From an uncultured Bdellovibrionales bacterium (GTDB lineage: Bacteria; Bdellovibrionota_C; UBA2361; CAKMMH01): a DNA stretch of 64,000 bases. This document shows positions 6,873 to 57,960 of the stretch, piece by piece (the first letter of the stretch is position 1; every line of letters begins with the position of its first letter). The position numbers were made by a program, and so were the translations under genes. Below the pieces are notes generated by a model, which saw only the letters and a program-made list of their open reading frames with translations, searched no databases and had not been told where the DNA came from. The DNA is taken from the NCBI GenBank assembly GCA_964534945.1, contig CAZHSB010000001.1:25527-89526 (forward strand), given 5' to 3'.

Positions 6873-7808
6873 ATGAATTACTATAAAACTATAAATAATA
6901 GTTTGGTTGAAAAAAAAGGATATTTGTGCGCCATATTAGGGCTAGTTGTTATTTTCATATGTTGGATTTCCCTTGATTTGTCGTCTAATTATTACAAGAC
7001 ATCTATTAGTTTTGAGCTTTTAAAAGATGCATTAAATGAAAAACAACATGATAGAGCCACTGAGATAAGTGTTTCTCATTTAGATCCTAGTTTTAGCATA
7101 AAAATAATGAAAAGAATTTTTCCATCTTATTCAAATTTGCATTATTCCCTTCCAGCTACTTACCACTATAAAATATTTGGAATAGAAAGTCTTATTGATA
7201 AAAATGATTTAAACGGAGCAAAGGATAATTTAAAAATAGTAAAAAAAGCATTAAAAAGTTATGGATTTTTAGAAAACACTACCGTGCTAGGATCTCTTGA
7301 AACTATCGAAAAGCAAATAAAAACATTGCAATTAGAAAACAAAAATTTCTCTGAATATAAAACTTATTTAGAAGATTTAGAAGCAAAGAAAATACGAATA
7401 TTAAGACGTCATTCATTATTAGCAGATGAGTTTGGAATATTTTTATCATTAAGCCCAAATTATAAAAAAGGCACAGAGCTAAAAACATATTCAAAAGGTG
7501 TGCTTTATGGACTTCCTGTTTTGAAAGATTTACAAGATGACATTTCATCGCTTCCGATATTAAAAGAGGAGTTAGATAAGATTGGCGGAGAAGTTAATAT
7601 CGAAGCACAAAACGCTTATGAAGTTTTTGCAGGTCGTGTTTTATCAATACGAGAAGCAAGTAAAAAAATGAGAAAAAATTTTGATGAAGTAACTTCAAAT
7701 ATAAAACTTACAAAAAACGAAAAATCTGCCACAAAAAAATCAATTGAAGCTTTAAAAAAATCACTTAACACTAATATAGAGAAATTAATATTATCAATAA
7801 ATAGCTGA
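6873..7808 (+). CDS. Hypothetical membrane-anchored coiled-coil protein
   Basis: 311 aa with one N-terminal TM helix followed by a K/E-rich, predicted coiled-coil region. No recognisable family. Confidence 0.45.
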   Translation: MNYYKTINNSLVEKKGYLCAILGLVVIFICWISLDLSSNYYKTSISFELLKDALNEKQHDRATEISVSHLDPSFSIKIMKRIFPSYSNLHYSLPATYHYKIFGIESLIDKNDLNGAKDNLKIVKKALKSYGFLENTTVLGSLETIEKQIKTLQLENKNFSEYKTYLEDLEAKKIRILRRHSLLADEFGIFLSLSPNYKKGTELKTYSKGVLYGLPVLKDLQDDISSLPILKEELDKIGGEVNIEAQNAYEVFAGRVLSIREASKKMRKNFDEVTSNIKLTKNEKSATKKSIEALKKSLNTNIEKLILSINS

Positions 7809-8316
7809 TATTATTGCATTTTGTTTAGAGGTGTAATTTCCATAGAATATTGTTTTAGGTTTTTATATTTTTTTTATTCAAATGCATTTTTTTCTTGCAC
7901 TTCGCCTTTTTTTTGATTATAAGTAATAACAATGGTTTTTGAGTCCTTTTTGGTTTTGTTTTTTTTAGTCAGAAAGTTGCGAGTTCAGACTGGCTTAAGA
8001 TGTGTGTTTTTAAACTGATTTTTGAGAAGTTTTCATAGTTAGTAAGCCTGTGTGGATTCGCTATTTAATGTTTTTAGTAAAGTTCTTTACTATTAGGTTC
8101 AATATATATCTTGCCTTTAAGTTGACTATAAGTGATTTTAGAAAAGATATATCAAGGATTACATTTCATTAAATATATATATGTTGTTACTATTGTAAGA
8201 GGTATTTTTGCAAGATAAGGGTTGTTCACGCTTTTGAAGGTACTTTTTAAGGATACTTTTACAATGATAGCATTTGTTTGCTTTAAATTTTTATTTTTTA
8301 TTAAAAAGGAAATTAT

Positions 8317-8607
8317 ATGAAAGGCTGGTCAAATTCTGAGATCCCATCACAAAATCAATATCTTCCAGAAAAAAAGCTTTTAGCTGCCGTATTACAAAGA
8401 GCAATCACTGATTTTGTAAGCGGAGAAGGAGATTTAAAAGAGACTGCTAAAATTTGGATATTAGGAGAAGATCTTGAAACTCCTCTTACCTTTTCTTTTA
8501 TTTGTGAAGCATTAGATCTTGATATGCAAACACTTCAACATGCAATCATTTCTCAAGGAGATTGCGAGCATTCAAATTTAAATAGCATAAAAGAGATCGC
8601 TATTTAA
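8317..8607 (+). CDS. Small hypothetical protein, paralog of 43022..43330 (unassigned family)
   Basis: ATG with AAAGGA RBS 6 nt upstream. Shares the motif L..A.L.RA..D...G.D..KE...FSF..IC..LDLD....AI with the 102-aa ORF at 43022. Confidence 0.55.
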   Translation: MKGWSNSEIPSQNQYLPEKKLLAAVLQRAITDFVSGEGDLKETAKIWILGEDLETPLTFSFICEALDLDMQTLQHAIISQGDCEHSNLNSIKEIAI

Positions 8608-8626
8608 TTTTCTTTTTTATCAAAAA

Positions 8627-8685
8627 TATATAAATTCTAGCAGGGAAAAACAGTTTTCTTGTCATTTTTTGCTAGAATTTATATA
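8627..8685 (+). terminator. Perfect 16-bp inverted repeat hairpin (TATATAAATTCTAGCA / TGCTAGAATTTATATA, 27-nt loop); terminator-like or regulatory
   Basis: Read directly from the sequence. Lies between the 8317..8607 gene and yacG. Confidence 0.45.
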
Positions 8686-8701
8686 TTTTAAGAACTTTTG
8701 T

Positions 8702-21541: not shown

Positions 21542-21618
21542 GGTGGATATAGCTCAGTTGGTAGAGCCCTGGATTGTGGTTCCAGTTGTCGTGGGTTCGA
21601 GCCCCACTATTCACCCCA
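21542..21618 (+). tRNA. tRNA-His (anticodon GTG), G-1 and 3' CCA encoded
   Basis: Hand-folded cloverleaf. Acceptor GTGGATA/TATTCAC, D arm GCTC/GAGC, anticodon stem CTGGA/TCCAG with loop TTGTGGT, T arm GTGGG-TTCGAGC-CCCAC, extra G at -1 paired with C73. Confidence 0.85.
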
Positions 21619-29115: not shown

Positions 29116-29191
29116 TGGTACACCAAGAGGGATTCGAACCCACGACCAAGAGATTAAGAGTCTCCTGCTCTACCAGCTGAGCTATTGGTGC
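29116..29191 (-). tRNA. tRNA-Lys (anticodon CTT), CCA encoded
   Basis: Hand-folded from the reverse complement. Acceptor GCACCAA/TTGGTGT, D arm GCTC/GAGC, anticodon stem GGAGA/TCTCT with loop CTCTTAA, T loop TTCGAAT, A73. There is one T-T mismatch in the T stem. Confidence 0.8.
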
Positions 29192-40675: not shown

Positions 40676-40752
40676 GTCCCTATCGTCTAGCCGGCCTAGG
40701 ACAGCAGCCTTTCACGCTGTAGACATGGGTTCGAATCCCGTTAGGGACGCCA
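40676..40752 (+). tRNA. tRNA-Glu (anticodon TTC), CCA encoded
   Basis: Hand-folded. Acceptor GTCCCTA/TAGGGAC, anticodon stem GCAGC/GCTGT with loop CTTTCAC, T arm ATGGG-TTCGAAT-CCCGT, G73. Confidence 0.85.
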
Positions 40753-42763: not shown

Positions 42764-43021
42764 AAAAACAAAAAAATATGCGACACTTTCTTTAATAATC
42801 CCCATAAGTGTTATTGTGAGCCAAGGCAATCCCTTCTTCACGGTTTTTCTTACTGATAATTTTCCATACATTAATTAAACGAAAACGCTTTTTTAAGTTA
42901 AAAAGATTTTTATTTTCTTGTTTTAATTTTTAAGAAGCATTTTTCTCGGTAAAAAGTTTTTCTTTAGGTTCTAAAAAAGTTTTATCAAAAAATTTTAACT
43001 TACTTTTTTAGGAGCTACACC

Positions 43022-43330
43022 ATGTCAAAATTATATCAACAAGATCCTGCTTACTTAACAGATAAAGGCTATGATCCAGTATGTGAACTTATGAGGGCAA
43101 TCATTCTTAGAGCAGTTGAAGACTACAATGCAGGTGGCGATTACAGAAAAGAAGCTGTAGATTATATGTTCGATAAGACTGGTGATAAGATTTTTTATGA
43201 AAACGAAGATGATCAATATATTTTTTCATTCTCATCAATATGCAAACATTTGGATTTAGATCCTGCAAAGACAAGATTTGCAATAATGAATGCTGATCAT
43301 AAAATTAGTACGAGACGTAGAACTATCTAA
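43022..43330 (+). CDS. Small hypothetical protein, paralog of 8317..8607 (unassigned family)
   Basis: AGGAG RBS. Shares L..A.L.RA..D...G.D..KEA and FSF..IC..LDLD....AI with the 8317 ORF. Confidence 0.55.
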   Translation: MSKLYQQDPAYLTDKGYDPVCELMRAIILRAVEDYNAGGDYRKEAVDYMFDKTGDKIFYENEDDQYIFSFSSICKHLDLDPAKTRFAIMNADHKISTRRRTI

Positions 43331-43364
43331 TTTTTGTTTTATCAGCAATAAATCATAAAATGGA

Positions 43365-43399
43365 CAGGGGGAGAATTGCATGGCTAAAAAATCCCCCTG
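43365..43399. terminator. 8-bp GC-rich stem hairpin (CAGGGGGA...TCCCCCTG) between convergent genes; putative bidirectional terminator
   Basis: Read directly from the sequence. Sits between the small ORF (+) and the cysA-like gene (-). Confidence 0.5.
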
Positions 43400-43472
43400 C
43401 TTGTTTTCTCCAAATTCTCATCAAAAATTTCAATCTAAAATTAAACAAAAGTAGGAAAAAATAAAAATTTTC

Positions 43473-45353
43473 TTAAATTGAAGGAACTATTAGGACACTG
43501 CTTGTGGTATGAGTTACAATCTCCTTTAGTAAATCAAAAACCTCCTTTTCATGTGAAAGAGGAACTCCAATAACTACTAAAGATATATCATCTTTGTTTA
43601 CTTTATTTAAAATTTCACTCATAAAATCTCCATTTTCAACACAAGAAATACAATTTAACTTATAAGATTCAAATAATAGTGAAGATTTCATAAGATAACG
43701 ATTCATTCGTTCTCTTTCTTCCTTTAATTTTGTATTTAATACATGAAAAAGTGTAACTTCGTTTCTTAAATGCCGTGCAATTCTTGCCCCAAATCTTATA
43801 ACTGTTTTCCCAGGCTCTCCTCCTGCCGTACAAATTAACATTTTATCTAACCTTAAGGTTCGAAAGTTAGAAATTAAAACAGGAACTCCTGCAGATACCA
43901 AAAGCTTTTTTGTTAAAAAACTTAATTTCGAAATTTCCTGTATATTATTATTTTGCGGAGCATCAACTAAAGAAACATCATAATACCCTTCCTGAACTTC
44001 TCTAACAAATTCTTTTATTAATTTTCCACTTCTTATTTTAGTATCAAAATGAAATAAATGACCTACACTTATCTTATCTTGTATCTTTTTTAAATTTTTT
44101 TGGACTTCCTCTAAAGCTTCTCCTCTCACACATGAATGAAATAAACTTAAAACTCCATGCGATGATAATGCAAGCTCTTTTCCTAAGGTCAATGCACCAT
44201 CTTGTTTTTCAAAATCATTCACTAGTGTAATAAATTTTAAAGCACTTGGTTCTAAAACATGATAAGAAGATAATGCTAAATATTGTTTTTTTCCAATCTC
44301 AACATCATTTTTAATATTCAATGAAATATCACTCGGTTCGCTACAAGCAACGTTGGCAAAACGTTGCCCATAAGAAAGTGCGGGCATTACAGGCCTTGTT
44401 CCCAAAAAAGTTTCAAGCTCAAAACAAAGCCTATTTATTGCACCTGAAAACCTAATTTCTTTTAATGTTCCCTCGCCTATCGGATAACAATCTTTAAATG
44501 GTACATCTTGATGCTTTACCATTTCTGGCCTAAACAAAAGCCTAACAGGTGCTCCCTCCTCATGCAAAGGTGCATCTTGTGGAAAAGGAAGTCTTTGTGT
44601 TCCAAGTCTTATTTCTCCACCTTCAGCCCTGCCAACAACTACATTTCCAGCTCCTAAAAATTTTGCAACAAATTCCTTTTTTGGTTTGTAATAAAGATTT
44701 TTGGGCGTTCCAACCTCTACTAAAATTCCTTTTTCCAAAACTCCTATTCTATCTCCAAGCTCAAAAGCTTCCTCTTGATCATGCGTAACTAAAATCGTAG
44801 TTACCTTTAATTCTCTTTGAATCTCTTTTAAAGAACATCTAAGCTGACTTCTTATCTCCGCATCAAGTGCCCCAAAGGGCTCATCTAATAACAACACTGC
44901 AGGCTCATATGCTAAAGCTCTTGCAAGTGCCACACGTTGTCTTTGCCCACCAGAGAGTTCATTTGGAAATCTCGTTCCAAGTCCACTAAGCCCTACAAGA
45001 TCAAGAAGCATTTGAGAACGACGATAACGTTCTTTCCTTTTTACTTTTCTAATTTTTAAGCCAAACTCTATATTGTCAACAACAGACATATTTCTAAAAA
45101 TCGCATAATTTTGAAATACAAATCCAGCATCCCTTTTCTGTGGAGAAAAATTAGTAACATCTTTACCATTTAAAAAGACCGCCCCCTCATCAGGATAAAG
45201 AAGCCCTGCGATAATTCTTAAAATTGTACTTTTTCCACTTCCACTACTTCCTAATAAGACAAAAAGTTCGCCATCATTAACAGTTAAATTAAGCTTATTT
45301 ACGACTAAATGCTCGTTAAACCCTTTTACTATATTTTCTAAAATTATTGCCAT
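43473..45353 (-). CDS. cysA: Sulfate/molybdate-type ABC transporter ATP-binding protein (CysA-like) fused to a TOBE-like domain and two C-terminal universal stress protein (UspA) domains
   Basis: Walker A GSSGSGKST, signature LSGGQRQR, Walker B LLLDEP. C-terminal 270 aa show two USP-like repeats (LICTAGGEPG...VTLFHV...ISLVVIGV...SVLIVP). Confidence 0.7.
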   Translation of the reverse strand: MAIILENIVKGFNEHLVVNKLNLTVNDGELFVLLGSSGSGKSTILRIIAGLLYPDEGAVFLNGKDVTNFSPQKRDAGFVFQNYAIFRNMSVVDNIEFGLKIRKVKRKERYRRSQMLLDLVGLSGLGTRFPNELSGGQRQRVALARALAYEPAVLLLDEPFGALDAEIRSQLRCSLKEIQRELKVTTILVTHDQEEAFELGDRIGVLEKGILVEVGTPKNLYYKPKKEFVAKFLGAGNVVVGRAEGGEIRLGTQRLPFPQDAPLHEEGAPVRLLFRPEMVKHQDVPFKDCYPIGEGTLKEIRFSGAINRLCFELETFLGTRPVMPALSYGQRFANVACSEPSDISLNIKNDVEIGKKQYLALSSYHVLEPSALKFITLVNDFEKQDGALTLGKELALSSHGVLSLFHSCVRGEALEEVQKNLKKIQDKISVGHLFHFDTKIRSGKLIKEFVREVQEGYYDVSLVDAPQNNNIQEISKLSFLTKKLLVSAGVPVLISNFRTLRLDKMLICTAGGEPGKTVIRFGARIARHLRNEVTLFHVLNTKLKEERERMNRYLMKSSLLFESYKLNCISCVENGDFMSEILNKVNKDDISLVVIGVPLSHEKEVFDLLKEIVTHTTSSVLIVPSI

Positions 45354-57883: not shown

Positions 57884-57960
<77 letters not shown>

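Follow-up and report, generated by a model that had tools for sequence, protein, structure and literature searches.

The closest described counterparts of the two genes considered here are the small helix-turn-helix (HTH) regulators and region 4 of the sigma-70 family (region 4.2 of RpoE, MerR/CadR, XRE/Cro and the controller C proteins). The genes, designated A and B, lie on the forward strand of a 64,000-nucleotide stretch of an uncultured Bdellovibrionales bacterium (assembly GCA_964534945.1, contig CAZHSB010000001.1, positions 25,527 to 89,526), which is referred to below as the window, and each encodes a protein of about 100 amino acids (aa). Like the HTH regulators, proteins A and B are predicted to fold into four short helices, the last two of which carry an HTH pattern (FSFxxIC-xx-L-G/D-L-D-P-xx-x-R-xx-I); all weak family matches of their relatives are to proteins of this kind, and their genes are small, standalone and furnished with a promoter and a terminator of their own. 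Unlike the HTH regulators, A and B are acidic, they possess a long conserved helix 1 (PE+xLLxAvLxRAIxD) that has no counterpart there, and comparison of hidden Markov models (HMMs), of profiles with profiles and of structures finds no significant similarity between them and any known HTH domain.

Other described systems bear on how the levels of such proteins are set. The mRNAs of the master regulators rpoS, flhDC and csgD have long 5' leaders. Extracytoplasmic function (ECF) sigma factors recognize -35 elements that contain AAC, as in the TGTAAC of B. subtilis sigma-X and the TGCAAC of sigma-M; a spacing of 16-18 nt separates these from the -10 element, which is of the CGT type. Gene A stands behind a long predicted leader, and the relatives of B have an AAC-containing promoter-type element. 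The C-terminal degrons of ClpX, with which the tail of B is compared below, comprise C-motif 1, exemplified by ssrA (...ALAA), and C-motif 2, exemplified by MuA (...RRKKAI) (PMC12723719).

Two conserved paralogous genes of an undescribed superfamily

An earlier note on this DNA had taken the two open reading frames (ORFs) for diverged copies of one gene and not for ORF noise. Both ORFs lie where it had placed them and have the lengths that it gave (Table 1). Their products are 33% identical across 75 aa (BLASTP, E 2e-10), and the alignments of the two orthogroups match each other over 69 columns with a probability of 97.7% and an E of 1.5e-12 (profile-profile comparison by hhalign). L21, A24, R28, D32, F59 and C63 (A numbering) are invariant in 103 A and B sequences, and the residue pattern that the note had drawn from the two proteins agrees with these columns. 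Protein A is acidic (pI 4.5); in protein B, the core is acidic and the C-terminal tail, HKISTRRRTI, is basic (orthogroup consensus HRISTRRRAA). No further paralogs are found inside the window. Judged by the conservation of their sequences, ORF-A and ORF-B are real, strongly conserved paralogous genes; each belongs to a conserved single-copy orthogroup, which, with the ancient paralogy described next, strongly supports the dismissal of ORF noise.

Homologs of A and B fall into 420 and 196 90%-identity clusters, respectively (E <= 0.01), mostly with 50-60% identity over the full length; all of the clusters lack annotation, and no Pfam domain occurs in any of them. The named sources are metagenome-assembled genomes (MAGs) labelled Bdellovibrionota, Bdellovibrionales, Oligoflexia, Deltaproteobacteria or SAR324, and when one genome of each GTDB species was scanned with an alignment of A only, 100 loci with a relative came up, all of them in MAGs of such labels. 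The best relative in that scan is only 85% identical, and the window's species is therefore not the scanned representative. The bacteria of this lineage, labelled Bdellovibrionota/Oligoflexia, are uncultured and have compact genomes rich in AT (in the window, GC is 30.7%, ~90% of the sequence is coding and the median gap between ORFs is 42 bp); a literature search on the lineage returned nothing about the A/B protein family. The MAG GCA_019694465.1 holds one ortholog each of A and B, so that the duplication is older than the radiation of the lineage; by this distribution, the A/B paralogy is ancient.

The 51 orthologs of A that were aligned share 25 invariant columns, among them those of the N-terminus MKxWSNSxxP and of PEKRLLAAVLQRAITDF...PLTFxFICEALDLD; the 21 invariant columns of B include ELMRA..LR..D, FSF..IC and the C-terminal ISTRRR. 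There is also a third orthogroup, C (~116 aa; GPERALLSALLFDGIQ...FSFxxVCEALGIDPxYLRxGL...RRNF), which is not present in the window and has no curated family match. In 28 A loci of relatives it lies within roughly 0.1-3 kb of A (mostly ~1 kb), usually downstream and convergent, and often just past yacG (L004 7398-7853, L035 4006-4371 and L045 4141-4509, all on the reverse strand, plus 25 other A loci). In this lineage the family comprises three or more conserved orthogroups. What chiefly sets A, B and C apart are short, invariant and probably disordered termini: A has MKxWSNS at its N-terminus, while B ends in ISTRRRAA and C in RRNF.

An exhaustive HMM search with a joint A+B profile reaches 4,664 50%-identity clusters at E <= 1e-3; 111 of them pass E <= 1e-10. 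The members of this superfamily are ~90-120 aa long, with the common pattern PE+xLLxAvLxRAIxD...A..W...FSFxxiCexLdLDpxxlRxxI, and the loci of distant members are ordinary chromosomal contexts. One member, P0279 (230 aa, on a Logan contig), is built differently: it repeats the domain three times in tandem and then runs into a tail rich in lysine and arginine.

The earlier note could place the residue pattern in no known family, and it was correct: searches of Pfam, NCBIfam and PHROGs, sequence searches of PDB and fold searches find no significant match. The best E values of A and B against Pfam, NCBIfam and PHROGs are 0.03-0.2, far short of the cut-offs; sequence profiles from A1 and A3 encounter only noise in PDB (for example, a stretch of the RNR beta-chain at E 0.05-0.1); and 115 distant superfamily members could be assigned to no Pfam, PHROG or NCBIfam family. 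What the distant members do have are weak matches, each confined to a single member (E 4.5e-4 to 8e-3), to HTH_36, HTH_28, CadR/PbrR, RpoE and the BspR anti-sigma family. The superfamily of A and B is absent from the databases as a described family. A phage origin was considered and rejected: tblastn of B and of one distant member against 50,697 phage records returned nothing, or an E of 0.8, and the rejection is made also because the contexts consist of chromosomal housekeeping genes.

Table 1. Features of the A and B loci (window coordinates)
Feature	Position	Strand	Description
A promoter-like block	7882..7923	+	ATGCAT and T-tract 7882-7894; -35 TTGCAC 7895-7900; 17-nt spacer; -10 TATAAG 7918-7923
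A 5' leader (predicted)	7930..8316	+	~387 nt; inferred from the position of the promoter
ORF-A	8317..8607	+	96 aa; 25 invariant columns; four helices predicted
Hairpin after ORF-A	8623..8689	+	25-bp near-perfect stem; dG -28.9 kcal/mol; z -7.7
Hairpin and U-run upstream of B	42813..42849	+	3' arm TTCACGGTTTTT, the window version of GCTCACAGGTTTT
CATAAC remnant CCATACAT	42864..42871	+	the window's only recognizable trace of the B motif
ORF-B	43022..43330	+	102 aa; 21 invariant columns, including ISTRRR; helix order as in A
Terminator-like hairpin after ORF-B	43357..43407	+	stem 43365-43372 / 43392-43399, then CTTGTTTTCT

Predicted fold and possible partners

AlphaFold2, which the earlier note had proposed as a check on a common fold, was run with an alignment of 103 sequences, and the models of A and B share their helix order: both have a confident core and low-confidence termini, with helices at residues 18-35, 38-48, 59-65 and 70-95 in A (pLDDT 80.8) and at 19-37, 39-49, 70-76 and 81-89 in B (pLDDT 78.4). 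The C-terminal half fits the HTH pattern when the two are compared by eye, without a statistic: positions 4, 8, 10, 15 and 18-19 are hydrophobic, position 5 is small (Cys) and the turn, at position 9, has Gly or Asp. Read from the alignment, the residues of A concerned are F59-I62-C63-L66-D67-L68-D69...L73...A76-I77; most members of B and C have Gly at the putative turn. By hhalign, the A/B segment falls in register on region 4.2 of E. coli sigma-E (RpoE), with a non-significant E of 0.053 and a probability of 1%. The top matches of Foldseek, also non-significant, are to sigma-70, C.BclI, homeodomains and XRE. An HTH-like assignment of the C-terminal half is plausible.

The reading that we prefer, and to which we grant somewhat less than an even chance, is that A and B belong to a new family of small regulatory proteins that are under tight control and have an HTH-like half. 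They are ancient paralogs in a large undescribed superfamily with a predicted compact four-helix core, in which helix 1 has PE+xLLxAvLxRAIxD and the last two, HTH-fitting helices have FSFxxICxxL(G/D)LDxxxxRxxI. A, B and C would act in the transcription apparatus as small regulators, with the HTH-like half contacting a partner: DNA or RNA in the case of B and C, which bear basic C-terminal tails, and more probably a protein, for example RNA polymerase or a sigma factor, in the case of the very acidic A. The suggestion of the earlier note, a small regulator or adaptor family, was a reasonable inference from the sequence.

The main rival of this reading is that A and B may be protein-binding adaptors or anti-factors and not nucleic-acid binders, with the acidic helical core as a scaffold and MKxWSNSxxP and ISTRRRAA as short linear motifs for docking on a partner, which could be a sigma factor, an enzyme or a protease (ClpX, or an adaptor). 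The uniform acidity of both orthogroups is consistent with such a role, as are the location of the invariant termini in regions of low pLDDT, the weak match of one distant member to the BspR anti-sigma family and the absence of any HTH protein among the structural neighbours. However, the fit of the C-terminal half to the HTH pattern speaks for the first reading, the basic tails of B and C are typical of nucleic-acid contacts, and no partner gene is steadily adjacent: yacG lies downstream of A in only 34 of 80 loci, and beyond a terminator, while the gene for the class-V aminotransferase, present upstream of A in 59 of the 80, is divergent (it is on the opposite strand) and lies beyond another gene. 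We consider the adaptor explanation unlikely, if still a serious contender.

That A and B are abundant small housekeeping or architectural proteins, for example associated with the nucleoid, the ribosome or RNA, and that the strong promoter signifies high constitutive expression, seems improbable to us. Similarity to bS20 is at the level of noise. The orthogroups are confined to one lineage, and the family is rich in paralogs and diversifies fast, which fits regulators better; the long leaders and the alternative-sigma-like promoter that are described below point instead to conditional expression.

Promoters, leaders and hairpins of the two transcription units

The non-coding regions in front of the two genes are indeed as long as had been remarked: 508 bp (7809-8316) before A, which is the longest gap in the window that contains no tRNA gene and corresponds to a long gap at every A locus inspected (747-872 bp in three relatives), and 258 bp (42764-43021) before B, which exceeds the 90th percentile of the window's gaps. 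Good ribosome-binding sites (AAGGA ahead of A, AGGAG ahead of B) and hairpins after both genes (Table 1) are likewise present. The description of the genes as monocistronic, with long leaders and downstream hairpins, is supported and, for A, can be sharpened: A has a distal promoter that is recognizable across genomes and a terminator hairpin in its relatives. The notion that the two regulatory contexts are similar is half right, in that the motifs of promoter type differ, being sigma-70-like at A and of the form TGyAAC...CATAAC in the relatives of B.

At A, the block ATGCATTTTTTTCTTGAC-N17-TAnnnT has been kept across genomes at 195-804 nt upstream of the ATG. The 16-mer ATGCATTTTTTTCTTG, with no more than 3 mismatches, occurs in 24 of 75 upstream regions of orthologs, where the counts for shuffles and for the reverse strand are 0.6 and 1, and relatives have a hexamer of the TAnnnT type ~17 nt past it; the exact 16-mer of the promoter block is unique in the window. 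The location of the block predicts that transcription starts near 7930 and, with that, the leader of ~387 nt. In L016, L029, L035, L039, L057, L012 and L013, the operator-like palindrome CCGAAT-N4-6-TTCGG lies between the -35 and -10 elements, which suggests that a repressor or autoregulator may bind there. The palindrome is absent at A in the window, where a looser search, for CGAA-N3-8-TTCG, found one unrelated site.

The length of its predicted leader and the conservation of its promoter liken small, regulator-like A to the long-leader master regulators; it is unlike them in that its leader holds no conserved RNA element, small RNA (sRNA) site or Rfam family. Rfam covariance models at gathering score find nothing in 7809-8316, in 42764-43021 or at three ortholog loci, and the window's only Rfam matches are four tRNAs outside both upstream gaps. 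The window's A leader folds somewhat better than shuffles (z -2.7). Conservation among the A leaders takes the form of islands within subclades and of a common translation-initiation region, TTAAACTTTTTGATGGGACAATC..ATG, in 26 loci. A conserved upstream ORF or leader peptide is not found in the A leader; the clusters that came up as candidate leader peptides were rejected as only flanking genes or multi-frame conservation of nucleotides. The persistence of the leader suggests that it may have a regulatory function. In L022 (~2860-2930), the A leader contains four tandem copies of an 18-nt unit, GCGCTGTGTTTAGCCGCA.

Convincing intrinsic terminators occur inside the A leader, past the promoter, in L041 (at about -416), L043 (about -441), L054 (about -405), L074 (about -390) and L057 (about -362), counted from the start of A; an example is GGACGCCTGGACGGGCGTCT, followed by TTTTTT. 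They could signify attenuation or a separate sRNA. If the latter, the distal promoter would drive an sRNA within the 508-bp gap and A would be transcribed from an unrecognized proximal promoter. The placement of terminators between the promoter and the ATG (~80 nt past the promoter in L057, ~260 nt in L041 and L043, and comparably in L054 and L074) is what one would expect of such an sRNA, and there are weak promoter-like hexamers in the AT-rich sequence near the ATG of the window's A. But the gap in the window has no terminator-like site, 53 of 72 relatives have no leader terminator and most of the 19 matches are weak, no Rfam family is matched, and what is conserved across genomes close to A is just the translation-initiation region and no proximal promoter. 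An internal terminator is, moreover, equally compatible with an attenuator in the leader of A. We accordingly put little weight on a separate sRNA and retain the distal promoter as the probable promoter of A.

The hairpin after ORF-A is AU-rich and ends 12 nt ahead of the ATG of yacG (8702), a start that has no obvious Shine-Dalgarno sequence. It is likely to be a terminator or a processing site, possibly of the RNase III type, or it may gate the translation of yacG. A hairpin and a U-run also follow the stop codon of A in most of the relatives that were folded (for example L008, L009, L010, L035, L039 and L057), and it is these strong hairpins that mark A as monocistronic.

In the window, as in two relatives, B comes after a gene for a polyprenyl synthase. 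A sigma-70-type promoter was not found upstream of B in 41 of 42 loci. The hexamer CATAAC is present instead: it occurs in 32 of 45 upstream regions of B (5.75 in shuffles, 1 on the reverse strand), and at many of 31 aligned sites in relatives it is preceded, at a distance of ~18 nt, by a TG(C/T)AAC-like element. It is the upstream element, in the place of a sigma-70-like promoter, that resembles the -35 of ECF sigma promoters; the downstream hexamer is CATAAC rather than a -10 of the CGT type.

A second motif, GCTCACAGGTTTT, is found with up to 2 mismatches in 17 of 42 upstream regions of B (L102, L103, L113, L117, L119 and L120 are loci that bear it). In one subclade it is preceded by a hairpin of variable sequence and a conserved GGCTGGTT(G/C)AA, and in other loci it lies 23-30 nt ahead of the start codon of B. 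The hairpin that contains its version in the window may belong to the leader, or it may terminate transcription of the polyprenyl synthase gene upstream. After ORF-B, the arms of the stem are CAGGGGGA/TCCCCCTG. The stretch as a whole does not fold better than shuffles (z -0.7), and the terminator is called because of the 8-bp G+C stem and the U-rich tail.

Protein tails, proposed function and neighbouring genes

Of 120 orthologs of B, 108 have the ending RRRAA (as ISTRRRAA); across the superfamily, AA is the last pair of residues in 33 of 150 representatives. With an invariant basic run that is followed by two small or hydrophobic residues, B tails bear a resemblance to the C-terminal degrons of ClpX. 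The likeness to ClpXP substrates is confined to the terminal residues of B, whereas the orthologs of A have A-[VMIL] at this end and those of group C have RRNF.

In the reading of A and B as tightly controlled regulators, the amount of protein would be governed at several levels: by a conserved promoter that belongs to each gene (that of A is sigma-70-like and has a T-tract; for B, most relatives have TGyAAC...CATAAC with its ECF-like -35), by the long 5' leader and, for B, by the degron-like tail. A number of findings weigh against this reading. The median pI is acidic in both orthogroups (4.48 for A, 5.10 for B), such acidity is unusual for small DNA-binding proteins, and the putative recognition helix of A has almost no basic residues. 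The leaders contain no universally conserved sequence or structure. In the window, B has no recognizable -35/AAC element at the expected distance, and its protein ends in RRRTI and not in AA. The neighbourhood is one of housekeeping genes, and no functional partner is apparent in it.

A more far-reaching version of the preferred reading would make A, B and C the first members of a new class of mini-regulators, with RNA polymerase, a sigma factor or DNA as their binding target, that together form a lineage-wide control module, for example a life-cycle or stress switch, with each gene gated by its own type of promoter, by a long and possibly attenuating leader and by proteolysis of the ClpXP type. 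We think it a long shot. If it held, the several thousand clusters of the superfamily would amount to a widespread and overlooked family of transcription factors. The preferred reading, if true, would itself mean that thousands of small proteins unseen by Pfam, NCBIfam, PHROGs and PDB represent a new type of bacterial regulator; that the A/B/C set marks a conserved control circuit in a lineage that is represented by metagenomes only; and that regulation in these compact-genome bacteria could be approached through a set of two or three genes, a pair of conserved promoter motifs and a long leader. If it is wrong, there is still a delimited domain of unknown function, with its orthogroups, invariant residues and confidently predicted core, for curation.

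Some neighbouring features deserve mention. Directly 5' of the A leader lies an ORF of 311 aa (6873-7808, forward strand) with an N-terminal hydrophobic segment, a coiled-coil-like character and no Pfam match; at least 19 of 80 relatives have a homolog of it in the same position and orientation. Past B, a protein of 626 aa is encoded on the reverse strand (43473-45353), in which an ABC ATPase domain is limited to residues 19-160 and no Pfam match at E <= 1e-3 covers the other ~450. Most of the other long gaps in the window are explained by the tRNA genes at 21543-21615, 29119-29191, 40676-40749 and 57884-57957.
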